From positions 2,144,001-2,208,000 of the forward strand of contig OZ241889.1 of NCBI GenBank assembly GCA_965203355.1: a stretch of DNA of 64,000 nucleotides, in the 5' to 3' direction. The DNA comes from Candidatus Latescibacterota bacterium. GTDB lineage: Bacteria; Latescibacterota; UBA2968; UBA8231. Positions 28,264 through 62,430 of this stretch are shown piece by piece (position 1 is the first letter of the stretch; every line of letters starts with the position of its first letter). The notes under the pieces are model-generated. The model saw nothing but the letters and a program-made list of their open reading frames with translations. It had not been told where the DNA came from and did not search any database. The position numbers were made by a program, and so were the translations under genes.

Positions 28264-30351
28264 CTAGCACTCGACGTCAAGGTCTTCACCGAGGGCTAGG
28301 CGCATGAGCAGATTCTGCATGCTGTCGCCCGGGGCGTCGCCTTCGGGCTGGCGGCGGATGTACGCGCCGTCTGGGCGCATTTGCCGAGATTTGGCGCGAT
28401 CGGCGAGCGCGAAGACGAGGAGCTCGCGATAGACGCGCTGCTTCAGGCCGGGATCCAAGATGGGGAAAACGACTTCGACCCGGGTACGCAGGTTGCGATT
28501 CATCCAGTCTGCGCTGCCGAGCCAGATTTCTTCGTCGCCGCCGTTGGCAAAGTAAAAGACGCGGCTGTGCTCTAGGAATCGGCCAATGATGCTGTACACG
28601 CGAATGTTCTCGCTGATGCCGTCGAGGCCGGCGCGCAAGCAGCAAATGCCGCGCACAATCAGATCGATTTCGACGCCGGCTTGCGAGGCCGCGTACAGGG
28701 CCTTGATGATCGCCGGGTCCATGAGGCCATTCATCTTGGCGATGATGGCGGCTGGCCGACCGGCGCGGGCGTGTTCGCTTTCGCGCTCGATGCGGTCGAG
28801 CATGCCTTGCATCAGCCCGGAGGGCGCGACTAGCAGTTTTTCAAATTGACTGATGCGGCTGTGGGCGGTGAGCATGTTGAAAACCTCGGCCACCTCGGCG
28901 GTGATCGTTGGCTCGGCCGTAATCAGCCCCAGATCTGTGTAGAGCCGCGCCGTGGTGTGGTTGTAATTGCCGGTGCCCAAGTGGGCGTAGCGACGCAGGC
29001 GATCTTGATCGCGGCGCACCAGCATCGACAGCTTGCAATGGGTCTTCAGGCCCATGATGCCATAGATCACGTGGATGCCGCTGTTTTCGAGGCGCTTGGC
29101 CCATTCGATGTTGGCCGCTTCGTCGCCGCGGGCTTTTAGTTCGACGAGCACGGTCACTTCCTTGCCGCGCTCGGCCGCGTCGATGAGTGCCTGCCCCACC
29201 TCTGAGTCGTCGCCCGTGCGGTAGATGGTCTGTTTGATGGCCAGCACTTTGGGGTCATTGGCCGCCATGCGGATGAAATCGATCACCGTAGAAAACGACT
29301 CGTAGGGATGGTGGAGGAGAATGTCGCCCGCGCGGATGGAGTCGAAGAAGGCGTCGGAGTCCGCGGGTACATCGCGCTCCACGGGTGTGAAGGGCGGATC
29401 CTTGAGGGCCGGCCGCGAGACCAGGCCGTAAAGAGCCATGACCCGATGGAGGTTGACCGGCCCGTTGACCCGAAAGACTAGGCTGTCGTCGAGATCGAAT
29501 TGCTGTTGCAAGAGCGATACGAGTGGGTCGGGTGCGCCCAGCGCGATCTCTAGCCGCACGGCGTCGGCTTGGCGCTGTTTGGTGACCTGTTCCTCGATTT
29601 CTTCCAGCAAATTGTCGGCGTCTTCTTCGTTGACATATAACTCGCTGTTGCGGGTGATGCGGAACGGAGCCGAGCCGATGACCTCGTAGCCGAAGAACAG
29701 TTCTTCGACCTGTATATCCATGATCCCGGCCAAGGTCACAAAGTGGAGGCCGTCGCTTTGGTCGGGCAGGCGCAAGATGCGCGGTAGCACGCGCGGCACG
29801 GTTGCCACGCCCATCATCGTCTGTCCCTGTTCTTCGAGCAAGGCCCCGATGCACAGGGCCTTGTTGAGCACGTGGGGGAAGGGATGGGCCGGATCGACGA
29901 CGATGGGCGTGAGGATCGGTTCGAGTTCTTCTTCCCAGTACTGACGCACAAAGTCGAGATGTTCGTCTTTGAGTCGGCGCGCCTCCCATAGGTAGATGCC
30001 TTCGGCGGCTAAGGCCGGGATGAGGTCCTCGTTCCAGCAGCGATACTGTTCGGCGACTTGCTCGTGGGCTTGTTGGGTGATGCGCTCGAGTTGCTCGGCC
30101 GGAGTTAAGCCATCGGGGCGGCTGGGATTGGCCCCGGATTCGTGCAATTGCAGCAGACCGGCTACGCGGATTTCGTAGAACTCGTCGAGATTGCTGGCGA
30201 CGATGGCCATGAACTTGACGCGCTCTAACAGGGGATTGCGCGGATCTTGGGCTTCTTCGAGCACGCGGGCGTTGAAGTTGAGCCACGAGAGTTCGCGGTT
30301 GATGTAGAGTTCGGGACGATCGTAGGTGGGCGGGGGGGCCATTTCGCTCAT
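28264..30351 (-). CDS. ppk1: Polyphosphate kinase 1
   Basis: YINRELSWLNFNARVL, SNLDEFYEIRV, LLHHPYESF, HLGTGNYN, GRFLEHSR, SADWMNRNL. Confidence 0.97.
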   Translation of the reverse strand: MSEMAPPPTYDRPELYINRELSWLNFNARVLEEAQDPRNPLLERVKFMAIVASNLDEFYEIRVAGLLQLHESGANPSRPDGLTPAEQLERITQQAHEQVAEQYRCWNEDLIPALAAEGIYLWEARRLKDEHLDFVRQYWEEELEPILTPIVVDPAHPFPHVLNKALCIGALLEEQGQTMMGVATVPRVLPRILRLPDQSDGLHFVTLAGIMDIQVEELFFGYEVIGSAPFRITRNSELYVNEEDADNLLEEIEEQVTKQRQADAVRLEIALGAPDPLVSLLQQQFDLDDSLVFRVNGPVNLHRVMALYGLVSRPALKDPPFTPVERDVPADSDAFFDSIRAGDILLHHPYESFSTVIDFIRMAANDPKVLAIKQTIYRTGDDSEVGQALIDAAERGKEVTVLVELKARGDEAANIEWAKRLENSGIHVIYGIMGLKTHCKLSMLVRRDQDRLRRYAHLGTGNYNHTTARLYTDLGLITAEPTITAEVAEVFNMLTAHSRISQFEKLLVAPSGLMQGMLDRIERESEHARAGRPAAIIAKMNGLMDPAIIKALYAASQAGVEIDLIVRGICCLRAGLDGISENIRVYSIIGRFLEHSRVFYFANGGDEEIWLGSADWMNRNLRTRVEVVFPILDPGLKQRVYRELLVFALADRAKSRQMRPDGAYIRRQPEGDAPGDSMQNLLMRLALGEDLDVEC

Positions 30352-30352
30352 G

Positions 30353-31156
30353 TCATTCGAGTTGAGAAATGGTTTCGCGCACGAATTGCACCGACTGTTT
30401 GAGTGCGTCGCGGTGCGCGCCTGCGATGCCGCATTCGTAGGCCAGATAGCCGCTAAAGCCGATGTCCTTGAGGGCCTGTAAGCCCGCGCGCCAGTCAATG
30501 TCGCCGGTGCCCGGCTGTAGGCGCGTGTTGTCGGCCAGGTGGACGTGGGCGACGTGGTGGCCCGCTTGGCGGAACGCGGCCGGGGTGTCGGTCTCTTCGA
30601 TGTGCATGTGGAAGAAGTCGCTGAGCAGGGCCACGCCTTGGGGGCTACCGGCGCGCTCGATGATTTCGACGCCGTCGGCTTGGCGGCGCAAGAGGTGTTG
30701 TTCGTAGCGGTTGAGGGGTTCGAGCAGGAGTAGGGTGCCTTGGCCCGCGGCATGGGCGGCGAGCTCTTTGACCAACTCGACGAGCAGGGCCTTTTCTAAG
30801 GAAATGGCGTCTTGGAGCGGCGAAAGGTCGGGTATGCGCGGCGGCCCAAAGATGGGGGGGACGATCTGACCGACGGCTTGAAAGTGCCCGCAGGCTTCGA
30901 GTTGGCGGCGGGTCTCGGCGAGGCTGTTGGCGCGCTTGTGCGGGTCGGGGTCGAGCCAGTCAAAGGTTTCTTGGCCGCAGATGGAAGCGATCTGGATGGA
31001 GCGACCGGCGAGGGCCTGTTCGTATTTTTCAACGCGATCGTACAGGCGTGTGCGGCCGCTGACTTCTAGCCCTTCGACGTTCAGCGATTCGGCGAAGTCG
31101 AGCTTTTCCGCGAGGCTTTCTCCGGGCAGCAGCCCTTCCTGTAAGGCAATTTTCAT
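30353..31156 (-). CDS. Sugar phosphate isomerase/epimerase (xylose-isomerase-like TIM barrel)
   Basis: LEPLNRYE, DFFHMHIEE, HVHLADNTRLQPGTGDIDW, YEC. Confidence 0.88.
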   Translation of the reverse strand: MKIALQEGLLPGESLAEKLDFAESLNVEGLEVSGRTRLYDRVEKYEQALAGRSIQIASICGQETFDWLDPDPHKRANSLAETRRQLEACGHFQAVGQIVPPIFGPPRIPDLSPLQDAISLEKALLVELVKELAAHAAGQGTLLLLEPLNRYEQHLLRRQADGVEIIERAGSPQGVALLSDFFHMHIEETDTPAAFRQAGHHVAHVHLADNTRLQPGTGDIDWRAGLQALKDIGFSGYLAYECGIAGAHRDALKQSVQFVRETISQLE

Positions 31157-34578: not shown

Positions 34579-36642
34579 ATGAGCGCAGCGCAACAACCTC
34601 TCAACGCCTTGCCGCAAGGCCATCGGTTGCAAGAATACGAACTGGTTCGCGTTTTGGGCTTTGGTGGCTTTGGTATGACCTATCTGGGCTTTGACCACAA
34701 CTTGGACAAAGCCGTCGCCATCAAGGAGTACCTACCTTCCGACATCGCCACCCGCATCGCGGACCACAGCGTCGCTCCGCAAGCCAGCGAATTTCGCGGC
34801 GACTTCCAGTGGGGGTTAGAGCGGTTCTTGGACGAGGCGCGTACTTTGGCCCGCTTTGATCATCGCCACATCATTAAGGTGTATCGTTTCTTTGAGGCGC
34901 ATGGCACGGCGTATATCGTGATGGAATATGCCGAAGGCGAGACCTTGTCGGCGCATCTGACGCGCAAAGGGACGCTGACGGAAGACGAACTCAAAGGGAT
35001 TCTGTATCCGCTTTTGGACGGTTTGGCGGTCGTGCATGGCGCGGATTTTCTGCATCGGGACATCAAGCCGGGCAACATTATCCTGCGGGATGCGGATGGC
35101 TCGCCGGTGCTGTTGGATTTTGGCGCGGCGCGTCAGGCGATCGGGGCCAAGAGTCGTTCGGTTACGTCTATCGTGACGCCGGGGTATGCGCCGCTTGAGC
35201 AGTATTCGAGTCGGGGTCGTCAGGGTGCTTGGACGGACATTTATGCGTTGGGTGGGGTGTGCTATCGGGCGTTGACCGGGGATGTGCCGGCGGATGCGAC
35301 GGATCGGGTGCGTCGTGATCCGCTGGTTCCGGTTTCGCAGCGGTGTGCGGGGCAAGCTAGCCAAGCGTTTCTTTCGGCGATTGATGAGGCGTTGTCGGTG
35401 GATGAGGAGGATCGTCCGCAGAATGTTGCGGCGTGGCGGACAGCGTTGGAGGCTTCGGTTCCCGTGCAAGAGGAGCGTCGTAGGGAGCAAACGGCTCCGT
35501 TAGTAGATACTGAGGCGGTAGCCGCGCAGGATACGGCAGAGAGTGCGCCTATCGTGAGGGATAGCAAGGAAAGTGCGCCGGACTCAAAGTCGCCGGATCG
35601 GTCGCCGTACAAACGGCTTGTCATAGCCTTGAGTGTGGTGGCGGTCGGTTTTATTGGGTTCATAGTTGACGAACAGTACGAGCAGCAGATAGTTGTCGAA
35701 CAGTACGAGCAGCAGGCGGCGTTAGAAAAGCAGCGCCGGGAGCAAGCGGCAGAGAAGCAGCGTCGGGAGCAGGCGGCACTAGAGAAACAGCGTCGGGAGC
35801 AAGCGGCGTTGGACAAGCAGCGTCGGGAGCAGGCGGCACTAGAGAAACAGCGTCGGGAGCAAGCGGCGTTGGACAAGCAGCGTCGGGAGCAGGCGGCAGA
35901 GAAGCAGCGTCGGGAGCAGGCGGCACTGGATAAGCAGCGTCGAGAGCAGGCGGCGTTGGATAAGCAGCGTCGAGAGCAGGCGGCACTGGATAAGCAGCGT
36001 CGCGAACAAGCGGCACTGGAAAAGCAGCGACGAGAGCAGGGAGCGTCGGTCAACGCGAAGGACAACGATGGCAGAACGCCGCTGCACCGTGCGGTGTTGA
36101 AATCAGCGGCGGTAGCGGTTTTGCTGAATCAGGGAGCGTCAGTCAACGCGAAGGACAACGATGGCAGAACGCCGTTGCACTGGGCGTCGAGTGAGAATGC
36201 TTCAGAGTCGGTGGCGGTTTTGCTGAATCAGGGAGCGTCAGTCGACGCGAAGGACAACTATGGCCGGACGCCGCTGCACTGGGCGGCGTTGGAGAATGCT
36301 TCAGCGGCGGTAGCGGTTTTGCTGAATCAGGGAGCGTCAGTCAACGCGAAGGACAAAGGTGGCGAAACGCCGCTGCACTGGGCGTCAAGTGAGAATGCTT
36401 TGAGGGCGGTAGCGGTTTTGCTGAATCAGGGAGCGTCAGTCAACGCGAAGGACAATGATGGCTTGACGCCGCTGCACTGTGCGTCGGAGATGAATGCTTC
36501 AGAGACGATAGTGTTGTTGCTGAATCAGGGAGCGTCGGTCAACGAGAAGAGCAACTATGGCCGGACGCCTCTATACGTTGCGTTGAGGGCGAATGCTTCA
36601 GATGCGGCGGCGGTGTTGCGCCGTTATGGTGGTACAAAATAA
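34579..36642 (+). CDS. Receptor-type Ser/Thr kinase 1: kinase-TM-repeat stalk-ankyrin ectodomain
   Basis: GFGGFG, AIKE, HRDIKPGN, DFG, TPGYAPLEQ; TM LVIALSVVAVGFIGFIV; then EQAALxKQRR repeats and 6 ankyrin units. Confidence 0.92.
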   Translation: MSAAQQPLNALPQGHRLQEYELVRVLGFGGFGMTYLGFDHNLDKAVAIKEYLPSDIATRIADHSVAPQASEFRGDFQWGLERFLDEARTLARFDHRHIIKVYRFFEAHGTAYIVMEYAEGETLSAHLTRKGTLTEDELKGILYPLLDGLAVVHGADFLHRDIKPGNIILRDADGSPVLLDFGAARQAIGAKSRSVTSIVTPGYAPLEQYSSRGRQGAWTDIYALGGVCYRALTGDVPADATDRVRRDPLVPVSQRCAGQASQAFLSAIDEALSVDEEDRPQNVAAWRTALEASVPVQEERRREQTAPLVDTEAVAAQDTAESAPIVRDSKESAPDSKSPDRSPYKRLVIALSVVAVGFIGFIVDEQYEQQIVVEQYEQQAALEKQRREQAAEKQRREQAALEKQRREQAALDKQRREQAALEKQRREQAALDKQRREQAAEKQRREQAALDKQRREQAALDKQRREQAALDKQRREQAALEKQRREQGASVNAKDNDGRTPLHRAVLKSAAVAVLLNQGASVNAKDNDGRTPLHWASSENASESVAVLLNQGASVDAKDNYGRTPLHWAALENASAAVAVLLNQGASVNAKDKGGETPLHWASSENALRAVAVLLNQGASVNAKDNDGLTPLHCASEMNASETIVLLLNQGASVNEKSNYGRTPLYVALRANASDAAAVLRRYGGTK
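35662..36039 (+). repeat. Coding tandem repeats: 27-bp duplication plus about 11 units of 30/27 bp
   Basis: ATAGTTGxCGAACAGTACGAGCAGCAG twice, then GAGCAGGCGGCxxTGGAxAAGCAGCGTCGG-type units encoding EQAAL(E/D)KQRR. Confidence 0.92.
36040..36630 (+). repeat. Ankyrin tandem repeats (about 99-bp period, 6 units)
   Basis: Recurring GCGGTTTTGCTGAATCAGGGAGCGTCAGTCAACGCGAAGGAC. Confidence 0.92.
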
Positions 36643-36670
36643 ACCAATCCTTGAAATGACCGAAGAGACC

Positions 36671-38242
36671 ATGAACGACGAACAGCATCGCTTGGCGTTG
36701 CCGCAAGGGACGCGCATACGGGATTTTGAGTTTCATCGGGTCCTTGGCCACGGCGGTTTTGGCATCACCTATCTGGGCTGGAACGTCACGTTGGATATCC
36801 CGGTGGCGATCAAGGAGTATCTGCCGGCCGACTTGGCGACCCGGGAACAAGACCTGTCGGTTGTGCCTCAGACCTCGCAGGCGGCGGCGGACTTTCAATG
36901 GGGTTTGGATCGGTTCTTGGACGAGGCGCGTACTTTGGCGCGCTTTCAGCATCCTAGTATCGTCCGGGTGCATCACTTTTTTGCCGCGCATAGCACGGCT
37001 TACATTGTAATGGACTATGTGGAGGGGGAGGACTTGTCGGCGTATCTGACGCGCAAGGGGACGCTGAGCGAAGCCGAACTCAAGGCGATTCTGTATCCCC
37101 TGTTGAGTGCTTTAGAAGTGGTGCATGGCGCGGATTTTCTGCATCGTGACATCAAGCCGGGCAACATCGTCCTGCGGGATGGGGATGGCTCGCCGGTGTT
37201 GCTGGATTTTGGCGCGGCGCGTCAGGCGATCGGGGCGAAGAGTCGTTCGGTTACGTCTATCGTGACGCCGGGGTATGCGCCGCTTGAGCAGTATTCGAGC
37301 CGGGGGCATCAAGGGCCTTGGACGGACATTTATGCGTTGGGCGGGGTGTGTTATCGGGCGTTGACCGGAGACGTGCCGGACGATCCGATGGATAGGATAC
37401 GCGACGATCCGCTGGTTCCGGTCTCTCAGCGGTGTGCGGGTCGTGCGAGTGCTGGGTTTTTGTCGGCGATTGATGAAGCGTTGTCGGTGGATGAGAGAGA
37501 TCGTCCGCAGAGTGTTGCGGCGTGGCGGACAGCGTTGGAGGCTTCGGTTCCAGTGCAAGAGGATCGTCGTAGGGAGCAAACTGCTCCGTTAGTAGATACT
37601 GAGGCGGTAGCGCCGCAGAATACGGCAGAGAGTGCGCCTATCGTGAGGGGCATTCTCGATGCACTGGTTACGCAGGTGGACGGCGACCCGCAGAATACGG
37701 CAGAGAGTGCGCCTATCGTGAGAGATAGCAAGCAGAGTACGCCGGACCAAAATCAGAGCACTAGACCGCACAAAATTACTTCCGCAATCAAACTGCTCTA
37801 TATCGCACTTGGGATTAGACTTTTTGAGGCCATTATCATTATGTCCAAATCAGTGGGGAGTAATGTTCCCGTCGGTGAAAGTATACTCCTAGCATTCCCA
37901 GCATTCATAGGATCAATAGTATGGGGTCCGTTTCAAGGACTAAGAATGGGGCCGTTTCAGTATGTACCCGGCGTATTAATAGGAGTAATAGGAGGGGGGC
38001 TGTTGCAGAGGCTCTTCATCCTCAAGATCGGAGAAGGCCGCAATTGGGCACGTATCACTTTTTTGGTATTGTCCATCATACGCATACCTATCTTTTTATT
38101 GATTCTAATATCACGTGATGTTGATATAAATGCTATGTCGGAATTGCTTGGCATCGTACAAAGCATCATAGAGATAGTTGCTATAGTCTTTCTCTGTCAG
38201 AAACCATCTTCTGACTGGTTCAGGGAAATGAAAGCGAACTAG
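36671..38242 (+). CDS. Ser/Thr kinase 2 with C-terminal multi-pass membrane domain
   Basis: Intact kinase motifs; AT-rich hydrophobic C-terminus with several TM segments and GRNWARITFLVL. Start may be 36656. Confidence 0.9.
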   Translation: MNDEQHRLALPQGTRIRDFEFHRVLGHGGFGITYLGWNVTLDIPVAIKEYLPADLATREQDLSVVPQTSQAAADFQWGLDRFLDEARTLARFQHPSIVRVHHFFAAHSTAYIVMDYVEGEDLSAYLTRKGTLSEAELKAILYPLLSALEVVHGADFLHRDIKPGNIVLRDGDGSPVLLDFGAARQAIGAKSRSVTSIVTPGYAPLEQYSSRGHQGPWTDIYALGGVCYRALTGDVPDDPMDRIRDDPLVPVSQRCAGRASAGFLSAIDEALSVDERDRPQSVAAWRTALEASVPVQEDRRREQTAPLVDTEAVAPQNTAESAPIVRGILDALVTQVDGDPQNTAESAPIVRDSKQSTPDQNQSTRPHKITSAIKLLYIALGIRLFEAIIIMSKSVGSNVPVGESILLAFPAFIGSIVWGPFQGLRMGPFQYVPGVLIGVIGGGLLQRLFILKIGEGRNWARITFLVLSIIRIPIFLLILISRDVDINAMSELLGIVQSIIEIVAIVFLCQKPSSDWFREMKAN

Positions 38243-38259
38243 TAACTCGTCGCCAAGAA

Positions 38260-38314
38260 ATGGGGTTTGGGTTCCTATTTTTGTTTTTTCTTCTGATTTT
38301 TAGCTGCTGACAAC
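38260..38314 (+). pseudogene. Orphan relic of a kinase-3-type C-terminal TM tail
   Basis: Reads MGFGFLFLFFLLIFSC* followed by CAAC; kinase 3 ends MCGMLFLFLIGLIILVNSC* followed by CAAC. CTATTTTTGTTTTT and TGCTGACAAC are shared. Confidence 0.55.
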
Positions 38315-38323
38315 GGAGAGGTT

Positions 38324-39961
38324 ATGAACAAACAATACCTATCTTTCATCGTGCATTTCGCAATAGCTTGGTTCCTTTGCATAAGCCCCGTCTCGGCGCA
38401 AATAAGTGTCGATGTTGTTTCTGAAAGCATCGTGCGGGTTCGCGCTTATGACGATCACAAAATCGCGGTTGAAGGGAGCGGGTTTGTCGTCAACGAAGCG
38501 GGCTACGTGCTGACGAATGCCCATCTTATAGCCAAGGCCGAGGGATTGACCGTGTTCTCTCTGAATACCGGGGCCGAACTCGTGGCGCAGCGGGTGTTCA
38601 CTAGCCGCGACATGAACTTGGCCCTGCTGCGCGTACAGGGCTTGAATTTGCCGTCCCTCAGTTTATCTGAGCAAGGGGCCGATGTAGGCCGGGTCGTGCA
38701 GACGCTGCGGTTTGAAGGTCCGAAGGATGTGCGGCTTACTCGCGGAACGATTGGCACATACCAAGCTGTCTTTGGCAAGAAAGCTAGCCGTCCTGTGGCA
38801 CGTTTGCTCCAACACAATGCCTTGATAACGGCCCAAGACTTTGGCATGCCCTTGTTCAATGAGTGTGGGGATGTCGTCGCCATCAATCTGCCAGATGCGA
38901 ATAGCGGCTCGTGGCCGTTTCGGAAAGCTAAGCCCAAAGGTACCATTTTTGCGCTGCGGAGCGGTGACATAATAACTGTGCTCAAAGAGCGAGAGATCGC
39001 ACATACAGTGGTTGAAGCAGAATGCCTGAGTGCTGTTGAACGTGCTGAACGCGATAGAAAAGCCGCCGCCGATAGCCTCAAGGTGGTTCAGGCTAAAGCC
39101 GACTCGGCAAGTAAAGCCGCAGAACAGGCTCAGGCTAAAGCCGACTCGGTAAGCAAAGCCGCAGAAAAGGCGCAGGCCAAAGAGAAGATCAATCGGCGCG
39201 CCGCAGAACAGGCGAGAGCGCGGTCTGATTCGGCCAGTAAGGCAGTCGCCGACAGTCTCAAGATGGCACAAGCCAAAGCCGACAGTCTCAAGGTGGCGAA
39301 AGCGCAGGCCGATTCCGCAAAGAAAGCAGTGGCCGACAGCCTCAAGATGGCACAAGCCAAGGCCGACAGTCTGAAGATGGCGAAAGCGCAGGCCGATTCG
39401 GCCAGTAAGGCGGTCGCCGACAGCCTCAAAACTATGGAAGAGAAGGCCGCGCAACGGTTGAAGTGGGGCCTTCTCGCCGGGGCGGGACTAGTTTTGCTCG
39501 CACTCCTCGGTTGGTGGCTTTCCTCGCGGCGCAAAAAGGAGCAATTACAGAGTGCCGAATCCCGCGTGAGCGAAGCCGAACAAACGGCCGAAGTAGCGCG
39601 TCAAGCCGCGGCGAACGCACCACAACCCGCGCCTTTTAGATGTCTATTGGAAGGTCGAGACAGCACCGACCGGCCCTTCGCATTGACCGTATCGGCATTG
39701 GCATTGGGTGATCGGGCTGGTGTGACGCTCGGAAGAAGCCCGGCCAATGCCGAATTTATCATTGACCACGAAGAAGTCTCCCGTGAACACGTCCGGCTTA
39801 CGTGCGTTGACGGCGAACTCTACGCAGAGGATTTGGATGCTCTAAATGGCACCAAGGTTAATGGTCGTCTGCTCAATCCCCGCGAACAGGTGCTATTGCA
39901 AAACAATGATCGGCTGGAGATCGGGCCGGTTGTTTTTGTCGTGCGTTTAGTTCAGGAGTGA
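38324..39961 (+). CDS. Inactive trypsin-like pseudoprotease-stalk-TM-FHA protein
   Basis: Signal peptide; GSGFVV, LTNAH; DLA replaced by NLA and GNSGGP replaced by QDFGMP; ADS repeats; TM; FHA (LGRS, VSREH, NGTKVNG). Confidence 0.85.
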   Translation: MNKQYLSFIVHFAIAWFLCISPVSAQISVDVVSESIVRVRAYDDHKIAVEGSGFVVNEAGYVLTNAHLIAKAEGLTVFSLNTGAELVAQRVFTSRDMNLALLRVQGLNLPSLSLSEQGADVGRVVQTLRFEGPKDVRLTRGTIGTYQAVFGKKASRPVARLLQHNALITAQDFGMPLFNECGDVVAINLPDANSGSWPFRKAKPKGTIFALRSGDIITVLKEREIAHTVVEAECLSAVERAERDRKAAADSLKVVQAKADSASKAAEQAQAKADSVSKAAEKAQAKEKINRRAAEQARARSDSASKAVADSLKMAQAKADSLKVAKAQADSAKKAVADSLKMAQAKADSLKMAKAQADSASKAVADSLKTMEEKAAQRLKWGLLAGAGLVLLALLGWWLSSRRKKEQLQSAESRVSEAEQTAEVARQAAANAPQPAPFRCLLEGRDSTDRPFALTVSALALGDRAGVTLGRSPANAEFIIDHEEVSREHVRLTCVDGELYAEDLDALNGTKVNGRLLNPREQVLLQNNDRLEIGPVVFVVRLVQE

Positions 39962-39964
39962 ACA

Positions 39965-41305
39965 TTGCATCGCTCCAGACGCTGGCGTCTCGTCTTTTTT
40001 TTGTGCGTACTTCTGCTGCCGTGTCGCGCTGTTGCCGCACCAGACTTTGCCGCGCTTGAAAAGAGTGTGGTACGCATTATAAGGCAGACCGACCAAGGGC
40101 TTGGTGCTGGTACTGGATTTGCCATAAATGATCAAGGCTATATTGCGACCAATATCCACGTCATAGCCGACGCCAACTCGATCAAAGTCATTCCAACAAA
40201 CTCCAACGAGCTATACGATGTGGAAGTAGTCGCCATGTCCGAGGAGCTCGACCTCGCAATCGTCTATATCCCAGATATAACCTTGCCGCCGATCACGCTT
40301 TCACTCGCACCAGCCACAAAAGGGCAGAAGGTGTGGTCCATAGGCTATCCCGGTGGTGCGGACCGGAACAGACCGGCTTACGATCCGACCGTGCAAGACG
40401 GCGTCATTGGGAGGATTTTTGCCGGAGCATGGCATACGCAAGAGCTCGCGATTATTCAGCACAATGCGCCGACTAACCCGGGCAACAGCGGCGGTCCTTT
40501 ACTAGATGATTGTAACCGGGCAATCGGCGTTAATACGCAGGCGTCTCTCGTCGTCATTACCAGTCCAGCTAGCGGGGTGACGCGGGTGCCCCACGCAGCG
40601 GGCATTTACTGGTCTTCGCATATAAAGGAATTGGCGAACCTATTAGACGACTACGGCATTGCTTTTCAATCGGAGAGCGACGATTGTGTGGCGGCGAGCG
40701 GTACGGGGAGTTCTGGCGGGGCAAAAAAGGCCCAGCGCGAAGCGGAGAAAGCACGACGCGAGGCCGAACAAGCGCGAGTGCAAGCAGAAGAAGCAAGCGA
40801 TCGATTTTTCTTCTGGCTTCTGTTGTTGGGCAGTGTGGCCTTGGCGGCCTTGGTTGTTGCCTTAAAGAAGCCGCGCCAGTTCGCTCAGCAGACCTTGGAA
40901 AAGCCACGCCAGCTCGTCCAACAGATGAGTCGGCGCGTAACCCAAAAAGAAGAGATAGAAGCCATTGCAAAAGGCCCAAGTCGCGGCCTCGTGCTGGCCG
41001 GTTTTGACGGTGGCGGCAATCGCGTCTGCATTGAGTTGTCGCCCGCCCGGTTTGTCGGTCAGCGATTAGGGCTTTCGCTCGGCAGGCATCCCGATTTGGT
41101 GGATGAAATCGTCGCGGATAAAAATGTATCCCGCCGGCATCTGCGGATTGCAGCCGATGGGGATCAATTTTACGTCGAAGATTTGAATTCCAGCAATGGG
41201 ACGTTGCTGAATGAGCAGCGTTTGTCGCCCTTTAAGCCAATGAGGTTGGACTATGGGGCCAAAGTCGCGCTGGGCGATTTGGTGCTCGTGGCGTCCAAAC
41301 TTTAG
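39965..41305 (+). CDS. Trypsin-like serine protease-TM-FHA protein
   Basis: Signal peptide; triad ATNIH, LDLAI, PGNSGGP; TM FFFWLLLLGSVALAALVVAL; FHA (LGRH, VSRRH, SSNGT). Confidence 0.88.
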   Translation: MHRSRRWRLVFFLCVLLLPCRAVAAPDFAALEKSVVRIIRQTDQGLGAGTGFAINDQGYIATNIHVIADANSIKVIPTNSNELYDVEVVAMSEELDLAIVYIPDITLPPITLSLAPATKGQKVWSIGYPGGADRNRPAYDPTVQDGVIGRIFAGAWHTQELAIIQHNAPTNPGNSGGPLLDDCNRAIGVNTQASLVVITSPASGVTRVPHAAGIYWSSHIKELANLLDDYGIAFQSESDDCVAASGTGSSGGAKKAQREAEKARREAEQARVQAEEASDRFFFWLLLLGSVALAALVVALKKPRQFAQQTLEKPRQLVQQMSRRVTQKEEIEAIAKGPSRGLVLAGFDGGGNRVCIELSPARFVGQRLGLSLGRHPDLVDEIVADKNVSRRHLRIAADGDQFYVEDLNSSNGTLLNEQRLSPFKPMRLDYGAKVALGDLVLVASKL

Positions 41306-41319
41306 CTAGGGTATTGAGC

Positions 41320-42207
41320 ATGAAAAAACGCAGCCGAGAGGTCAGCATCTTTAGTATGTCTGCGCTTGATCTGTTCGCATCGGCTCTTGGTGCTTTTATA
41401 CTCATTACCATAGTACTACTGCCCTTTTTCCCGAATCTGAACATAGCGGAACGAGAGAAAGCTGAGTTGGAGCAGGCAAAGGCTCAGTTGGCGCAAGCGG
41501 AGGCCAAATTGGAGCGGGCCGAGGCCAAACTAGAACGGGAAAAGGCCAAATTGGAGCGGGAAAAAGCCAAGCTGGAGCAGGCAAAGGCCAAAGCGCCTAA
41601 AACAAAAAGTCAGCTTGTAAAACGGGTGGAGGCTTTGCAACGGGAGATAGACGACACCACTGTTTTGTTGGGCATTAAGACGAAGGCGAAGAAGTTCGCG
41701 TTCGTCATAGATATGTCGGGCAGTATTTATCAGCGTGGACAGCAAGATTATCGCCAGTTCATAACGTTGTCCATACAAGACATGCTCGCTGCTTTTAAGT
41801 CGGAAATAGCAGTCTGTCTCATTGGTTTTCAAGGCTCAAATCAGTTGCACTATTGGCCTCAAAGTAGAGGCTACTTTCAAGTGAAGAAGAATACGCGCGA
41901 TCGCGTTATGGGACAGGTGAGCGACTGGATGAAATCGGTGGGTGGCGGTACGCCCACACTCGCAGCCTTGCTGGCGGCGATTGCATTGCGCCCCGAAGAA
42001 ATCATCCTATTGAGTGATGGTGCGCCCTCAGAACCCTCAGAAGATTGGCGCATGGTCGTGCGGGCTGTAACGAATAAAAATAGGCAAAAAATACCCATAC
42101 ACGCCGTAGCCGTTGGCAATTACGTGTCAGACCGAAAATTCATTGATTTTCTAGTGGAGCTAACAGAACGGAACAATGGGTATGTCGTGGGAGCCAAGCC
42201 GGGTTGA
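41320..42207 (+). CDS. MotB/ExbD-like Asp-containing TM anchor + coiled coil + vWA domain
   Basis: REVSIFSMSALDLFASALGAFIL; heptad AKLER repeats; MIDAS FVIDMSGS, GGTPT, LLSDGAP. Confidence 0.8.
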   Translation: MKKRSREVSIFSMSALDLFASALGAFILITIVLLPFFPNLNIAEREKAELEQAKAQLAQAEAKLERAEAKLEREKAKLEREKAKLEQAKAKAPKTKSQLVKRVEALQREIDDTTVLLGIKTKAKKFAFVIDMSGSIYQRGQQDYRQFITLSIQDMLAAFKSEIAVCLIGFQGSNQLHYWPQSRGYFQVKKNTRDRVMGQVSDWMKSVGGGTPTLAALLAAIALRPEEIILLSDGAPSEPSEDWRMVVRAVTNKNRQKIPIHAVAVGNYVSDRKFIDFLVELTERNNGYVVGAKPG

Positions 42208-42208
42208 C

Positions 42209-42577
42209 ATGAACAAGTCGAGATTTTTGGTATATCGAATTGGTCGTGGCTCAGGCGTGGACATCCAGATTGACCATGCTTCGGTCTCTCGTATTCACGC
42301 CGAACTCATTGCGATGCAAAGCGGCTCTTACTACCTGACCGATTGCGCCAGCAGCCGAGGTAGTTATGTTGCGCGGAACGGCGAGTGGAGACGTATCCGG
42401 CAAGAATCTATAAGCGCGACAGACGCGATTTTACTCGGTCATTATCAGACGACCGCACCCGCACTTATCGCCATGGCCGCGCCGAGGGAATGCCGTTCAG
42501 AAGAGGGTGCATCCCGGCCCCAGGGACCAGTGCGGCGCAACGCAGATACGGGTGAGATCATTGGCGAGGAGGATTGA
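42209..42577 (+). CDS. FHA-domain protein
   Basis: YRIGRG...SVSRIHAEL...LTDCASSRGSYV. Confidence 0.85.
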   Translation: MNKSRFLVYRIGRGSGVDIQIDHASVSRIHAELIAMQSGSYYLTDCASSRGSYVARNGEWRRIRQESISATDAILLGHYQTTAPALIAMAAPRECRSEEGASRPQGPVRRNADTGEIIGEED

Positions 42578-42578
42578 C

Positions 42579-43364
42579 ATGGCAAAAGGGCAAGGGGTAG
42601 AGCTGGAACAACGCCTAAAAGCGAGCGGCATTAGTCTGTTAGGAGGCATCATATCCATAGCGATTATGAGTCTAATTTTCGCGGATCCCGATTCCGCGGC
42701 CGGTGCTTTCTTGCTAGATCGTCACACGGAAAATTTTCCCTATCCGTTTACGATCCAAAACGTCATGTGGCTCATGTTTTGGGTCGGCTGCGGTGAACTC
42801 TGGGTGCGGTTTAACCAAGCCAAGCTGGAAATGGAGCAGGTGTCAAAACGCTATCTGCCGGAGGACGATGAGGTCATGTTGCGGGCGCGGGATTTGGGTT
42901 CCTTTTATCAAAAGGTGCGGCCTATGGCCGAGAAGCCAACCTTTTATTTGCAGCGTCTGATCATGCGCTGTATTCTACAATTTCAGGGCAGCCATTCCGT
43001 GGACCAAGCCAATTCGCTGTTGAACTCGTCCCTCGAATTATTTCAGCACGAGCTCGAACTCAAATACGCGATGTTGCGCTATCTCGTATGGCTGATACCC
43101 ACGTTGGGTTTTATCGGCACTGTGGTGGGCATCGCGTTTGCCTTGGATTATGCCGCCAACATTGAAGACCCACGGGATCCGACCTTGCTGGCCGGGATCA
43201 CAGGTCGGCTGGGCGTAGCATTTTACACGACCTTGCTGGCGTTGGTCCAATCGGCCCTGCTGGTGTTTGCGCTGCACATTGCACAGAGCCGGGAAGAGAT
43301 GGCGCTAAACCAATCCGGCCAGTACTGTTTGGACAACTTAATCAATCGGCTTTACGAGAAGTAG
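42579..43364 (+). CDS. MotA/TolQ/ExbB proton-channel family protein
   Basis: LIPTLGFIGTVVGIAFAL and RLGVAFYTTLLAL; GAGGAGG RBS. Confidence 0.88.
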   Translation: MAKGQGVELEQRLKASGISLLGGIISIAIMSLIFADPDSAAGAFLLDRHTENFPYPFTIQNVMWLMFWVGCGELWVRFNQAKLEMEQVSKRYLPEDDEVMLRARDLGSFYQKVRPMAEKPTFYLQRLIMRCILQFQGSHSVDQANSLLNSSLELFQHELELKYAMLRYLVWLIPTLGFIGTVVGIAFALDYAANIEDPRDPTLLAGITGRLGVAFYTTLLALVQSALLVFALHIAQSREEMALNQSGQYCLDNLINRLYEK

Positions 43365-43416
43365 CTGTGGGTGAGACGCCTGTACAGCCGGTATAACCCA
43401 AAGATAGGAGGGCACC

Positions 43417-44070
43417 ATGCCTGTTTATCGCGGCCCCGACGGAAAAATCATTGAGGAGAAGACCGCTAAGCGGAAAGAGGAGACCAAACGAACAGACCTA
43501 GCCAACAGGCCGTTGCCGCCGGCACCACAAGGCAGCGAGCAACCGGCTGGTGCCGGGCGTTTAGATGCGCCCACGCAGCGGATGGGTGAAAACCGCGCTC
43601 CGGCCAGTGTCGGCGCGGAGGAGCGGACGCGCTTGGTGGGTGGACGGCGGCGGCAAGAAGATGAGGAGCGGCGGCAAGAGCGCGCCGAAGAAGATCGCGG
43701 CATGGATGATCCGGTTGTAGGATGGTTGGTGATCGTTGAGGGGCCGGGAAAAGGGCGGGCCGTGCAGTTGGGTTATGGTTCCAATCCGCTCGGCCGCGGT
43801 GCAACCGATCGCATCAAGCTGGATTTTGGCGACGATCAGATTTCGCGCAGTGGTCATGCCGTTATTACGTACGATCCACGCGGCCGAAAGTTTTACGTGC
43901 AGCACGGCGGTGGCACCAACCTGACGTATCTCGGCGACCAGCCCGTGCTCACGCCGACTGAGTTGCCGGCGCTGAGTCACATCAACGTCGGTAATACGGT
44001 TCTTCGTTTCGTACCGCTGTGCGGTGCCGAGTTTGATTGGCAAGAGCCAGAAGGTAGTGAAGCGCGATGA
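43417..44070 (+). CDS. FHA-domain protein with disordered Thr-containing N-terminus
   Basis: PVVGWLVIVEGPGKG...LGRG...ISRSGHAVITYDP...GTNLTYL. Confidence 0.85.
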   Translation: MPVYRGPDGKIIEEKTAKRKEETKRTDLANRPLPPAPQGSEQPAGAGRLDAPTQRMGENRAPASVGAEERTRLVGGRRRQEDEERRQERAEEDRGMDDPVVGWLVIVEGPGKGRAVQLGYGSNPLGRGATDRIKLDFGDDQISRSGHAVITYDPRGRKFYVQHGGGTNLTYLGDQPVLTPTELPALSHINVGNTVLRFVPLCGAEFDWQEPEGSEAR

Positions 44071-45164
44071 ACGAACTAGACGGACGCTTTGCCGCGCGGC
44101 AAATTCCCGGCAAACGGGAGTATCAAGAGGATGATTACGGCCTGCTGGACGGGCGCGACCTCGGCCTGGATGGCAGCGAGCACACCATGTTGTTGGTGGC
44201 CGATGGCATGGGCGGTCACGTGGGCGGCGCGACGGCTAGCGGCCTTTTGAGTAAGACCTTTGTCGAGGCGTATCCGCTGGCATCCGGGCCCATTGTCGAT
44301 CGGCTCAGGGATTGTCTCGAAGGGGCGAATAAAGCCATCGCCGATGCTATTACCAAAAATCCCGAACTCGACAGCATGGGTTCGACCTTGGTCGCGGCGG
44401 TTGTTTCAAGCGAAGGGCTGAACTGGATCAGCGTGGGCGACTCGCCGTTGTGGTTGTTCCGCGAGGGGCAATTGGAGCGTTTGAATGCAGACCACTCTAT
44501 GGCTCCGGTTCTGGCGGATCTCGTGGCAACCGGGCGTATGACCGCAGAGGAAGCGGCTCTGGATCCGCGGCGGCATTCGCTGCGGTCGGCGGTCATGGGC
44601 GATGACATACATTTGGTTGACGTGTCGTCGCAGCCGGTAGCTGTAAAGCAGGATGACCGGCTGCTATTGGCGAGTGATGGTTTGATGACCCTCAGCGAGC
44701 AAGAGATTGCCGCTATTCTAAAGGAAACGCAAGACGCGTCGTTGGAGGATAGTGCTGCGGCCCTCATCCAAGCAGTGGAAACTGCCGAACAGCCCCACCA
44801 AGACAATACGACTGTCTTGTTGTACGCGCCGGCCGTGGGGACGAAATCGGCGGCGGCTGTTGACGAGAGAGAAGCTGCTCAGGACAAGCCGCGATCAGGC
44901 CGAAAACGCTGGGGCAGACTGTTAGGGATGTTACTATGCGTTGTTGTCTTATGGGGGGTGCTTTATTGGCTTAGGCAGGGCGAAGATGTGGCTGAAGATG
45001 TGGCTGTTGAGCCGCCAGCGGCAACGTCTGATGTTCAACGATCAATAGGAGCCGACGCCAAAGAGAATGCCCCGGCTTCTCAGGAGGAGGTGACAAGAGA
45101 CAGCATGCGTGTGGGCGAGAAAGTCGAACTTAACGAGCCACAAGAAGGAACAAGCTATGAGTGA
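44067..45164 (+). CDS. PP2C/PPM Ser/Thr phosphatase with C-terminal TM
   Basis: REYQED, VADGMGGH, VGDS, ASDGL, DNTT; TM LLGMLLCVVVLWGVLYWL. Confidence 0.92.
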   Translation: MNELDGRFAARQIPGKREYQEDDYGLLDGRDLGLDGSEHTMLLVADGMGGHVGGATASGLLSKTFVEAYPLASGPIVDRLRDCLEGANKAIADAITKNPELDSMGSTLVAAVVSSEGLNWISVGDSPLWLFREGQLERLNADHSMAPVLADLVATGRMTAEEAALDPRRHSLRSAVMGDDIHLVDVSSQPVAVKQDDRLLLASDGLMTLSEQEIAAILKETQDASLEDSAAALIQAVETAEQPHQDNTTVLLYAPAVGTKSAAAVDEREAAQDKPRSGRKRWGRLLGMLLCVVVLWGVLYWLRQGEDVAEDVAVEPPAATSDVQRSIGADAKENAPASQEEVTRDSMRVGEKVELNEPQEGTSYE

Positions 45165-46239
45165 GGAACAGCATCGCTTGGCGTTGCCCCAAGGGACGCG
45201 CATACGGGATTTTGAGTTTCATCGGGTCCTTGGCCACGGCGGTTTTGGCATCACCTATCTGGGGTGGAACGTCACGTTGGATATTCCCGTGGCGATCAAG
45301 GAGTATCTGCCGGCCGACTTGGCGACCCGGGAACAAGACCTGTCGGTTGTGCCCCAGACGTCGCAGGCGGCGGCGGATTTTCAATGGGGTTTGGATCGGT
45401 TCTTGGACGAGGCGCGGACGCTGGCGTGCTTTCAGCATCCCAGTATCGTCCGTGTGCATCACTTTTTTGCGGCGCATAGCACGGCTTACATTGTGATGGA
45501 CTATGTGGAAGGGGAGGACTTGTCGGCGTATCTGACGCGCAAAGGGACGCTGACCGAAGCCGAACTCAAGGCAATTCTATATCCGCTTTTGGACGGTTTG
45601 GCGGTCGTGCATGGCGCGGATTTTCTGCATCGTGACATCAAGCCGGGCAACATCGTCCTGCGGGATTCGGATGGCTCGCCGGTGCTGTTGGATTTTGGCG
45701 CGGCGCGTCAGGCGATCGGGGCTAAGAGTCGTTCGGTTACGTCTATCGTAACGCCGGGGTATGCGCCGATAGAGCAGTATTCGAGTCGGGGTCGTCAGGG
45801 TGCTTGGACGGACATTTATGCGTTGGGTGGGGTGTGCTATCGGGCGTTGACGGGAGATGTGCCGGCGGATGCGACGGATCGGGTTCGTCATGATCCGCTG
45901 GTTGCGGTCTCGCAGCGGTGTGCGGGGCGTGCGAGTGCTGGGTTTCTTTCGGCGGTTGATGAGGCGTTGTCGGTGGATGAGGGGGATCGTCCGCAGAGTA
46001 TTGTGGCGTGGCGGACAGCGTTGGGGGCGGAAGGGGTGGCAGGAAAGAGGCGGGAGACAGGAGGTGCCTCAGACGTGCAGCGTAAGGAGTCACGGCCGCG
46101 TCCTAGTGAGCCGGTTGTGAGAGCTGAACGGTCTGGCAATAAAGAAGAGGAAAGGGGTTGTATTGATAAAGGTCTTAGGATGTGTGGGATGCTATTTTTG
46201 TTTTTGATCGGCCTTATTATTTTGGTCAATAGTTGCTGA
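45157..46239 (+). CDS. Ser/Thr kinase 3 with a single C-terminal TM anchor
   Basis: Intact kinase motifs; ends in a hydrophobic tail with no ectodomain. Confidence 0.9.
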   Translation: MSEEQHRLALPQGTRIRDFEFHRVLGHGGFGITYLGWNVTLDIPVAIKEYLPADLATREQDLSVVPQTSQAAADFQWGLDRFLDEARTLACFQHPSIVRVHHFFAAHSTAYIVMDYVEGEDLSAYLTRKGTLTEAELKAILYPLLDGLAVVHGADFLHRDIKPGNIVLRDSDGSPVLLDFGAARQAIGAKSRSVTSIVTPGYAPIEQYSSRGRQGAWTDIYALGGVCYRALTGDVPADATDRVRHDPLVAVSQRCAGRASAGFLSAVDEALSVDEGDRPQSIVAWRTALGAEGVAGKRRETGGASDVQRKESRPRPSEPVVRAERSGNKEEERGCIDKGLRMCGMLFLFLIGLIILVNSC

Positions 46240-46260
46240 CAACCTCCCCGAACTTTTACA

Positions 46261-46354
46261 GAGAGGTTATGGACAAACAACACCTATCTTTAATCGTGCA
46301 TTTCACAGTGGCTTGATTCCTTTGCACAAGTCCCGTCTCGGTGTAAGAAGTCGA
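46261..46354 (+). pseudogene. Decayed copy of the RBS and 5' end of the pseudoprotease-FHA gene (38316-38412)
   Basis: GAGAGGTTATG...MDKQHLSLIVHFTVA*FLCTSPVSV* versus MNKQYLSFIVHFAIAWFLCISPVSAQ; TGG>TGA and CAA>TAA stops. Confidence 0.85.
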
Positions 46355-62025: not shown

Positions 62026-62157
62026 GCTTAGGATTCTCGTTGCCTACCAGCGACATGCCCCGCACGATGGCGCAAGTGGAGCGCTGCTGACGACTCATCG
62101 CCTCTTATCAGCGGGAATGCTTTGTTAGGGCCGCTGGGGATTGCTACCTACAATGGG

Positions 62158-62409
62158 CTATTGAGACGCGATAAAAATAATGATGAGAACCATAACAAGT
62201 GCTACCACTAACCCGAAGCAGCCGAAGCCAGAGAAGGAGTGTTCGATCTCTCTGCCCCAACGTTCAGAAAACGTCCCGTCTTTCTTGTCACCTCCCATCG
62301 CCTTTATTGCCGAGAGTATAGCTAGGCCTAAGAAAATAATCGCTATCGGTGGTAGTGGTATTGTTACGAAGGCTAATATGAGTAAAACGACAGCAACAAG
62401 GCATCCCAT
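62158..62409 (-). CDS. Small membrane protein (83 aa)
   Basis: Hydrophobic segments; GGAG RBS; low-GC island context. Confidence 0.6.
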   Translation of the reverse strand: MGCLVAVVLLILAFVTIPLPPIAIIFLGLAILSAIKAMGGDKKDGTFSERWGREIEHSFSGFGCFGLVVALVMVLIIIFIASQ

Positions 62410-62430
62410 TGATTTGTCTCCGATATAGCA

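Follow-up and report, generated by a model that had tools for sequence, protein, structure and literature searches.

We analysed a stretch of 64,000 nucleotides of contig OZ241889.1 (assembly GCA_965203355.1, positions 2,144,001 to 2,208,000 of the forward strand) from a Candidatus Latescibacterota bacterium, hereafter the window, and in particular a gene cluster at positions 34579-46239 on its forward strand in which a putative ion-driven motor pair stands among genes of Ser/Thr phosphorylation. A previous reading made from the letters alone, hereafter the sequence-only reading, had described at this place ten co-oriented genes for three membrane-anchored Hanks kinases, a membrane PP2C phosphatase, two trypsin-transmembrane (TM)-FHA proteins, two soluble FHA proteins, a MotA/TolQ/ExbB-family protein (the A subunit) and a vWA protein with an Asp-bearing TM helix (the partner). 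The list of open reading frames (ORFs), Pfam and a motif check show this inventory to be correct, with all ten ORFs located and every domain matched by Pfam (Table 1; related loci in other genomes are denoted by L and a number). The membrane topology it had given for the kinases, PP2C, trypsin-FHA proteins and vWA protein agrees with a hydrophobicity scan.

Table 1 Genes of the cluster and neighbouring genes. Positions are those of the window. Values after Pfam domain names are E-values.
Feature	Position	Strand	Matches and remarks
K1, Hanks kinase	34579..36642	+	Pkinase 1.1e-37, Ank 6.9e-43
K2, Hanks kinase	36593..38242	+	Pkinase 7.6e-36; true start probably near 36656-36671
TrpFHA1	38324..39961	+	Trypsin_2 2.5e-16, FHA 5.9e-15
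TrpFHA2	39965..41305	+	Trypsin_2 6.3e-28, FHA 1.5e-15
vWA partner (B-subunit-like)	41314..42207	+	VWA_3 9.6e-10
FHA133, small soluble FHA protein	42176..42577	+	FHA 1.7e-13; start probably ATG 42209
A subunit, MotA/TolQ/ExbB family, 261 aa	42579..43364	+	MotA_ExbB PF01618 6e-10; ORF open from 42507, 261 aa counted from ATG 42579
FHA217	43417..44070	+	FHA 2.8e-6 (28.1 bits, cut-off 20.7)
PP2C phosphatase	44067..45164	+	PP2C_2 1.7e-9
K3, Hanks kinase	45109..46239	+	Pkinase 5.9e-36; start probably ATG 45157
Ankyrin-repeat protein, 236 aa	32231..32941	+	Ank 6.4e-43; only in some related loci, e.g. L004, L026
AAA-type ATPase, 533 aa	32938..34539	+	AAA_22, AAA_35, AAA_16, all weak; no PADLOC match
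ATPase, 448 aa	49841-51187	-	AAA_15/AAA_21/DUF3696; full-length match to PADLOC candidate defence protein HEC-03B, E 2.4e-151
Polyphosphate kinase 1	28264-30753	-	

When the likeliest start codons are used, the intergenic distances from TrpFHA1 to K3 range from -4 to +82 bp, and this close or overlapping spacing suggests that these genes form one transcription unit. The A-subunit gene is bordered on both sides by the small FHA genes, with gaps of 1 and 52 bp. A scan for promoters and terminators gave counts near those of shuffled sequence and was uninformative. The absence of type VI secretion system (T6SS), TonB, Tol or flagellar genes nearby, also claimed by the sequence-only reading, stands for the span from 28 to 51 kb that was scanned with Pfam; the flanking genes in this span are metabolic and include a 2-hydroxyacid dehydrogenase, a xylose-isomerase-like TIM barrel and an FAD oxidoreductase. 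The G+C content is 0.53-0.56 in the cluster core (38001-44000) compared to 0.60-0.62 in the flanks.

The A subunit scores 39.4 bits against PF01618 (cut-off 22.9), and its profile matches solved TolQ over positions 64-240 with an E-value of 0.003. Its AlphaFold2 model has a mean predicted local distance difference test score (pLDDT) of 85.7, and all listed Foldseek matches of this model in PDB are ExbB, TolQ, PomA or MotA with probability 0.99-1.00; the best is TolQ 8vlw_B (TM-score to target 0.67, root-mean-square deviation 4.0), and every E-value exceeds 0.001. As modelled, the A subunit has a TolQ/ExbB-type fold. Residues T175, G177, G180, T181, T217 and T218 are invariant in 36 A-subunit sequences, and the invariant Thr and Gly residues of the last two TM helices align to the 'GTVwGI' and 'aTaiGL' helices of TolQ. 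The pore-lining Thr residues are those that we take to be the essential ones of the MotA/TolQ/ExbB family. Three complete related genomes were searched for ExbB-family and ExbD matches. Apart from the A gene of the cluster, all strong ExbB-family matches in them (above 80 bits) have ExbD matches at a distance of no more than about 1 kb, whereas no ExbD match was found within about 250 kb of the A gene; in the closest complete relative, one has to go about 264 kb from the cluster to reach another ExbB or ExbD gene. Each of the three genomes also has 2-3 further weak ExbB-family matches that likewise have no ExbD neighbour. One apparent FHA-MotA fusion (P0018) was rejected, its middle part being an out-of-frame read-through of an overlap also seen in L010, and a search for longer fused forms of the A subunit returned only distant MotA-family proteins with other domains.

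The partner consists of a short basic N-terminus, one N-terminal TM segment with Asp19, a helix of about 70 residues and a vWA domain that keeps the MIDAS motif DMSGS...T...D. In its AlphaFold2 model (pLDDT 87) the TM helix spans residues 13-38, a single long helix residues 44-114 and the vWA domain residues 116-297. Given the basic N-terminus and the positive-inside rule, the vWA domain is predicted to lie in the periplasm. The best-conserved part of the partner across phyla is the N-terminal motif RSREINIFSMSALDLFASALGAFILI, the N-terminus reading 'M-K-x-R-S-R-E-I-N-I-F-S-M-S-A-L-D-L-F-A-S-A-L-G-A-F-I-L-I', and 46 of 47 aligned partners keep the Asp, the Chelatococcus form being the sole one without it. 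In MotB, ExbD and TolR, the Asp of the single helix is of the essential type. The N-terminus of the partner matches ZorB (MotB-type) weakly (E 1.9e-4), and Pfam found no ExbD, MotB_plug or OmpA domain match in the protein; having none of the periplasmic domains of ExbD, TolR or MotB, it falls outside those families. The sequence-only reading had taken the vWA protein as the Asp-bearing partner of a MotA-like channel, and the conserved Asp, the model fold and the lack of ExbD near the A gene bear this out. The partner would thus be the functional counterpart of ExbD, TolR or MotB.

The periplasmic part of the partner is more varied than its N-terminus. Since a first profile missed divergent vWA domains, these were assigned by Pfam together with a second seed; Pfam itself reports vWA (E <= 0.001) in 22 of the 47 aligned partners. 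Among 70 partner ORFs, 27 have coil and vWA as in the window, 20 a vWA domain directly, 20 a beta-rich domain that Pfam does not match, and 3 are other or split forms. About 20 partners have no vWA and carry instead a C-terminal domain of ~130 aa with the motif 'DVDLHVxDPxGxE' and without a Pfam match (L060, L068-L072, L075-L078, L083, L086-L089 and L098). There is usually one partner per locus, with pairs only in L064, L065 and L112. Tandem repeats at 35711-36040 (30 nt, in K1), 39088-39462 (42/84 nt, in TrpFHA1) and 41467-41592 (21 nt, in the partner) encode predicted periplasmic stalks. Partner orthologues in Latescibacterota vary from 273 to 333 aa, so that the stalk length may be variable.

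TrpFHA1 and TrpFHA2 share one layout, that is, an N-terminal signal-like segment, a trypsin-like domain, a stalk, one TM segment and a cytoplasmic FHA domain. TrpFHA2 has a short stalk and an intact triad (His65, Asp96, Ser175). In TrpFHA1, which has a repeat stalk, the triad is degenerate ('HNF'): His is kept, Asp is replaced by Asn and Ser by Phe. Judged by these residues, TrpFHA1 is a pseudoprotease and TrpFHA2 a protease with an intact triad and predicted activity. We aligned 80 trypsin-FHA proteins to the TrpFHA2 triad: 38 have the complete triad, 41 have no Ser, and one (L031) has Asp and Ser and no His region. All 29 two-copy loci, the window among them, have a copy without Ser upstream and an intact copy downstream. 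Of the loci with a single type, ten have a Ser-keeping copy only (nine with full triad and the L031 fragment) and twelve a dead copy only. By this alignment the dead/live pairing is a conserved design feature, and the protease and pseudoprotease of the sequence-only reading are both recovered. The L031 gene (10917-12300, Thiosymbion) consists of two overlapping ORFs, probably through a frameshift or an assembly error.

All three kinases keep the Gly loop, the VAIK Lys, HRD...N (HRDIKPGN in K1) and DFG. They differ in their membrane parts. K1 has one TM segment (347-365) followed by a stalk of 10-residue repeats, encoded by eleven copies of its 30-nt repeat, and then about five ankyrin repeats predicted to lie outside the cytoplasm; the hydrophobicity scan gives five C-terminal TM segments for K2 and one C-terminal TM anchor for K3. 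Positions 36662-36961 of K2 and 45148-45447 of K3 are 94% identical over 300 nt, and positions 34801-35100 of K1 are 81-84% identical to both. This high 5' identity suggests that the 5' parts of the kinase genes were recently duplicated or gene-converted, and the C-terminal sensor parts differ. Kinases of other lineages have PEGA or PDZ domains as sensor parts. The PP2C has a C-terminal TM anchor (284-302) and the metal-site motifs DGMGG, GDS, DGL and DNTT; it matches the Stp1-like model of NCBIfam with E 6.2e-40, below the cut-off of the model.

Gly-Arg and Ser-x-x-His are kept in all four FHA domains. The kinase, PP2C, FHA and vWA MIDAS motifs are judged intact by their usual definitions. 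FHA133 and FHA217 have no TM segment in the hydrophobicity scan. FHA133 ends in a tail conserved across phyla, 'P-V-R-R-N-x-x-T-G-E-I-I'. In FHA217, a disordered linker joins a conserved N-terminal motif, MPVYRGPDGKIIEEKT, to the FHA domain at the C-terminus, and the N-terminus of the protein, 'M-P-V-Y-R-G-P-D-G-K-I-I-E-E', resembles the FHA133 tail with Asp where FHA133 has Thr. Its linker contains two conserved Thr motifs, DAPT and EExTRLV, and the Thr of the latter (Thr71) is kept in at least 90% of 39 sequences. FHA domains usually prefer Thr with a hydrophobic residue at +3, and Thr motifs of this kind occur in both soluble FHA proteins. The placing of a phospho-motif ahead of an FHA domain is reminiscent of the self-inhibition switch of GarA and OdhI. 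FHA217 also matches the FhaB/FipA-like model of NCBIfam with E 1.9e-13, below its cut-off.

A profile built from eight MotA-like proteins returned 206 relatives in contigs from one genome per species, of which the best 80 loci were kept, and domains on all ORFs of these loci were mapped by jackhmmer with the domains of the window as seeds. Some contigs are short, and the motor gene has 5 kb or more to either side in only 60 loci; counts in brackets refer to these. An FHA gene lies directly upstream of the motor gene in 53/80 loci (38/60) and directly downstream in 65/80 (49/60). PP2C is present in 62/80 (47/60), a kinase in 62/80 (50/60), the Asp-TM partner in 64/80 (56/60) and a trypsin-TM-FHA gene in 48/80 (42/60). 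The 80 loci span Latescibacterota, Gamma- and Alphaproteobacteria, Binatia, Acidobacteriota and Gemmatimonadota. The full set is found in Gammaproteobacteria (Alteromonas lipotrueae, Halioxenophilus sp. WMMB6, LSUCC0112, Pseudohongiella, SAR86, Halieaceae and Thiotrichaceae), and also in Latescibacterota, in Alphaproteobacteria including Nioella ostreopsis, in Binatia and in one Thermoanaerobaculia metagenome-assembled genome (MAG). Gene order varies by lineage while content stays; in most Gammaproteobacteria it is FHA, A, FHA, PP2C, trypsin-FHA twice, partner, kinase. The sequence-only reading had named a lack of synteny in other genomes as a result that would refute it; synteny does hold across phyla, with the gene set kept and its order rearranged, which favours that reading. 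The cluster is a conserved set and not a chance neighbourhood.

Closer to the window, tblastn of its proteins on 34 related loci found a core that recurs at 55-95% identity and comprises one or two trypsin-FHA genes, the vWA partner, often the small FHA gene, the MotA-like gene, FHA217, PP2C and at least one kinase. The number of kinase and ankyrin genes differs among these loci, and some copies are fragmented. About 30 Latescibacterota loci have the same gene set, often between the same metabolic flanks, and the nearest relatives of the MotA-like protein are in Latescibacterota MAGs (up to 96% identity). The ankyrin gene upstream of K1 is a lineage-specific accessory outside the core. The adjoining AAA-type ATPase gene, of which few related loci have one (L007, L017, L026, L053), is probably a sporadic neighbour outside the system.

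Several variants were seen. On a conjugative megaplasmid of Rhizobium leguminosarum, a vWA-TM-FHA protein replaces the trypsin-TM-FHA protein. Halioxenophilus has a second, divergently transcribed unit (L088 205-7229, reverse strand) with an RDD protein, PEGA-domain kinases, an M4 thermolysin-like peptidase-TM-FHA protein and a PP2C fused to a thermolysin-propeptide motif; its main cluster is then followed by an OmpA-family gene. Eukaryote-like repeat genes (LRR, WD40, collagen, LDL-receptor class B, and a PG-binding+LRR protein) flank the cluster in a short Latescibacterota variant (L052 3077-5310 and 12219-15788) and in Gemmatimonadota (L093 5168-7866).

In a quick maximum-likelihood tree of 89 A proteins, the protein of the window falls in a Latescibacterota group, a clade that also holds two Gemmatimonadota-labelled MAGs and one Acidimicrobiaceae-labelled MAG. 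With 99% support, this group lies inside a larger clade that includes SAR86, Pseudohongiella and further Gammaproteobacteria. The groups of Gemmatimonadota and Binatia also fall within Gammaproteobacteria, and the well-supported branches require at least five changes of the label 'Gamma'. The mixing of phyla in the tree, together with the lower G+C content of the core, indicates that the cluster has passed between phyla by horizontal transfer. Of 400 gammaproteobacterial species genomes sampled evenly, eight have an orthologue at E <= 1e-85, a count that takes in the centre genome, itself picked for having one; in another 33 there is no more than a weaker match of 75-103 bits (one of these genomes is flagged unpublished). 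Among 1.84 billion cluster representatives, 213 proteins match at E <= 1e-30. Some genomes have two copies (L037 and L047; L089 and L092).

A motor pair of this general kind has been proposed before. According to a paper of 2025 (Mol Biol Evol 2025;42:msaf138; PMC12204202), TM-tethered vWA proteins co-occur tightly with tolQ homologues that have no tolR/exbD, and such transpore-helix vWA (TPH-vWA) proteins were proposed in silico to insert and rotate within TolQ-like pentamers. These partners are described there as occurring 'predominantly in heterologous pairs', in Proteobacteria and Verrucomicrobia, no function is assigned to them, and the word 'kinase' is absent from the text (0 occurrences). 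The window agrees with this in having a TolQ/ExbB-family gene without tolR/exbD beside a gene for a TM-Asp/periplasmic-vWA protein. As far as the accessible description goes, the window clade differs in usually having a single partner, with coil and vWA, vWA or a non-vWA beta domain, and in being embedded in a set of kinase, PP2C, FHA and trypsin-FHA genes. A family that fits the same description, in which an A gene stands with a ~450-aa gene and two tandem partners, scores 75-103 bits, versus more than 280 for orthologues, and is distinct from the window clade, a long and fully supported branch separating the two. The window clade may overlap with homologues of that study. In the sister family (L115-L118) the neighbours are TPR, PEGA+FGE-sulfatase, DUF6174 and M12 metalloprotease genes, and at one of these four loci the 450-aa gene has an FHA domain and a kinase-TPR gene lies upstream.

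Our searches of the open-access literature turned up no link between a MotA/TolQ/ExbB gene and FHA, PP2C and trypsin-FHA genes, and the accessible part of Kaur et al. 2020 (eLife, PMC7159879) does not describe the cluster. The claim of an undescribed system therefore stands for the whole assembly and not for the motor pair, which PMC12204202 had already proposed computationally. The union of the motor pair with a full phosphothreonine (pThr) writer, eraser and reader set and with a live/dead tethered protease pair was not met with in that open-access literature.

Compared to ExbBD-TonB, TolQRA and MotAB/PomAB, the window has the same A-subunit fold, with 'P..GF.GTV.GI' and 'A..TT' helices that align to TolQ, and a partner with a single helix and conserved Asp. 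It differs in that Pfam finds no ExbD/TolR or OmpA-like peptidoglycan-binding domain in the partner, that no TonB or TolA gene was seen, and that the A subunit has an extra N-terminal TM segment. With Zorya, it shares weak profile similarity (ZorA2 E 4.6e-6, ZorB E 1.9e-4) and an ion-driven motor that serves neither motility nor import. ZorA has a long C-terminal cytoplasmic tail, whereas the A subunit has 261 aa and no such tail, and the long coil in the window is on the B subunit and faces the periplasm. PADLOC matched one ZorA and two ZorB models weakly and gave no ZorC, ZorD or ZorE match on the cluster; apart from these it returned generic kinase matches and a PP2C match to one candidate model, and no system-level match, so the cluster does not map to a listed defence system.

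T6SS PpkA, PppA, Fha1 and TagR are an example of a kinase, PP2C and FHA pathway that controls an envelope machine, and PpkA has a periplasmic vWA domain. The window resembles this threonine-phosphorylation pathway in its Hanks kinase, PP2C and FHA reader but has no linked T6SS genes between 28 and 51 kb, and its FHA proteins stay below the cut-off of the TagH model. VipB/TssC was found in none of five carrier genomes and not among the scanned neighbours, which speaks against a T6SS regulatory module, the alternative named by the sequence-only reading. In Sulfolobus, a network of ArnA (FHA), ArnB (vWA), the kinases ArnC and ArnD and PP2A represses the archaellum. In that network, too, proteins with FHA and vWA domains work together with Ser/Thr kinases and a phosphatase to control a surface structure driven by a motor, but the Arn network is archaeal, has a cytoplasmic vWA protein, acts on gene expression and has no TolQ-like channel or proteases. 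MamE and MamO are a protease/pseudoprotease pair of the magnetosome, likewise a membrane-tethered HtrA/trypsin-like protease with a degenerate paralogue, and NCBIfam places TrpFHA1 with MamO (E 2e-9) and TrpFHA2 with MamE (E 5.6e-13), neither match coming near the cut-off. The window differs in having no magnetosome genes, PDZ domains or haem motifs, and both of its paralogues end in a cytoplasmic FHA domain. The TerY-P triad, reportedly described by Anantharaman and colleagues in 2012, is said to join a soluble vWA protein, a PP2C and a kinase, often with ter genes. The vWA protein of the window is membrane-anchored and predicted to be periplasmic, and no ter genes were seen in the Pfam scans of the cluster and its flanks (28-51 kb).

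We read the cluster as one conserved, horizontally mobile, phospho-regulated, ion-driven periplasmic force transducer with an attached protease, and put the probability of this reading at about 0.55. From homology, gene linkage and motifs we infer the 5:2 assembly, the phosphorylated residues, the binding partners, the direction of signalling and the cellular role as follows. By homology, the A subunit would form a pentameric channel, and the partner a dimeric inner subunit with its Asp helix in the pore, where the other motors have ExbD, TolR or MotB. The partner would extend into the periplasm with its long helix and vWA head and grip a ligand, and proton flow would be turned into torque or pull. 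Linkage and motifs suggest that this motor is wired to a Ser/Thr phosphorylation circuit. The writers would be the membrane Hanks kinases with their outward sensor parts, which in the window are ankyrin repeats or multiple TM segments; the eraser would be the membrane-anchored PP2C, and the readers the four FHA domains. Likely phospho-targets are the juxtamembrane linkers of the kinases, both Thr motifs of the FHA217 linker and, in FHA133, the TGEI tail. Since two of the readers are the cytoplasmic ends of the periplasmic protease/pseudoprotease pair, phosphorylation would act on a tethered protease; phosphorylation inside the cell may recruit or release this protease beside the motor, or signalling may run in the reverse direction. 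As to the role, our best guess is that the system controls, in response to periplasmic cues, a process of the envelope or cell surface. The coupling of pThr signals to proteolysis and a motor, and the immune-like or host-sensing role, both proposed by the sequence-only reading, are likewise candidate readings drawn from gene linkage.

Several results weigh against this reading. There is no partner gene in 16/80 loci and no trypsin-FHA gene in 32/80 (some contigs being short), and 11/80, all of Gemmatimonadota, retain the motor pair only, an A gene with a convergent partner gene; the motor can therefore work without the phospho-module. The sequence likeness of the A subunit to solved TolQ is weak, as its E-value above shows. 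The A subunit also has no invariant cytoplasmic Thr, so that no FHA docking site is evident on the motor. A complex prediction with two A copies and FHA217 (score 0.00, mark 0.32) counts neither for nor against binding.

A more specific and tentative version, which we think unlikely, takes the cluster as a phosphorylation-gated, proton-driven 'pull-and-cut' machine that serves as an envelope-surveillance or immune-like system and is passed between phyla. The vWA head on a rotating B subunit would seize a periplasmic or outer-membrane ligand and the motor would strain it; the protease/pseudoprotease pair, recruited through its FHA domains, would cleave it, with the kinases arming and PP2C disarming the machine. 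Copies in sponge symbionts would have been refitted with eukaryote-like sensor domains.

An anti-phage or conflict system of Zorya type, in which a breach of the envelope is sensed by the motor and signalled on through the kinases and FHA proteins to an effector, be it the tethered protease or some other factor, seems to us improbable. The patchy spread (8/400 gammaproteobacterial genomes including the centre genome), the well-supported mixing of phyla that points to horizontal transfer, the low G+C content of the core and the double copies would all suit such a system, as would the Rhizobium variant on a conjugative megaplasmid, the weak ZorA and ZorB similarity and a strong strain-to-strain variation in kinase copy number and sensor domains. 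In addition, an ATPase that matches the candidate defence protein HEC-03B over its full length lies 3.6 kb downstream of the cluster, but two conserved metabolic genes separate the two. However, besides lacking a system-level match in PADLOC, the cluster has no nuclease, NADase or other usual effector; viral contigs gave only three weak partial matches; and many Latescibacterota have the cluster between the same chromosomal flanks, hydroxyacid dehydrogenase and/or TIM-barrel/FAD oxidoreductase being counted in 10 of 34 related loci.

The actinobacterial FhaA/FhaB/PstP/PknA/PknB cluster is a model for a kinase/PP2C/FHA circuit of growth and division, and the window could hold such a general circuit merely adjoining an independent and unrelated TolQ-like/vWA motor. 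The motor pair does stand alone in the 11 Gemmatimonadota loci and in Rhizobiales, and FHA217 resembles FhaB/FipA. Yet the co-occurrence outlasts repeated rearrangement of gene order in at least four phyla, the small FHA genes directly flank the A-subunit gene, no RodA, PBP or FtsW-type genes are among the Pfam-scanned neighbours, and even the distant sister motor family has an FHA-bearing gene and a kinase alongside in one of the four loci examined. Two separate modules seem to us distinctly improbable. Eukaryote-like repeat proteins are abundant throughout the genomes of sponge symbionts, so that their adjacency to the cluster is weak evidence. We give little credence to a device mainly for host interaction in sponge symbionts, whose vWA head and ankyrin, LRR and WD40 proteins would engage host molecules: many carriers are MAGs with sponge-code-like isolate names (the habitat being assumed from the names), the K1 ankyrin repeats are predicted outside the cytoplasm and LRR, WD40, collagen and LDL-receptor-repeat genes adjoin the cluster in related loci, but the core is also present in the cultured Alteromonas lipotrueae, Halioxenophilus sp., Nioella ostreopsis and LSUCC0112 and in SAR86 and Pseudohongiella MAGs that are not sponge MAGs, and the kinases of non-sponge carriers have PEGA domains and not ankyrin.

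The cluster itself is real and non-random. Ion-driven 5:2 motors power flagella, TonB import, Tol-Pal, gliding and Zorya defence, and we know of none that is wired to Ser/Thr phosphorylation. If the force-transducer reading is true, the cluster would be the first case of eukaryote-like phospho-signalling, with writer, eraser and four readers, that controls a motor of the 5:2 type, and the first such motor with a membrane-tethered live/dead protease pair in one unit. It would also give a concrete functional context to the vWA 'force transducers' predicted in 2025 without a known role. The carriers include the four cultured marine bacteria just named, and Rhizobium leguminosarum has a variant; the reading is therefore directly testable. 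As a whole, the interpretation of the sequence-only reading stands in part: it holds in its inventory, protease pair and partner role, is favoured by the synteny across phyla, and does not hold in the novelty of the motor pair, a kind proposed in silico in PMC12204202.

Two minor observations concern the rest of the window. The polyphosphate kinase 1 gene upstream has no apparent connection with the cluster, and at the end of the window (62001-64000) the G+C content falls to 0.48.

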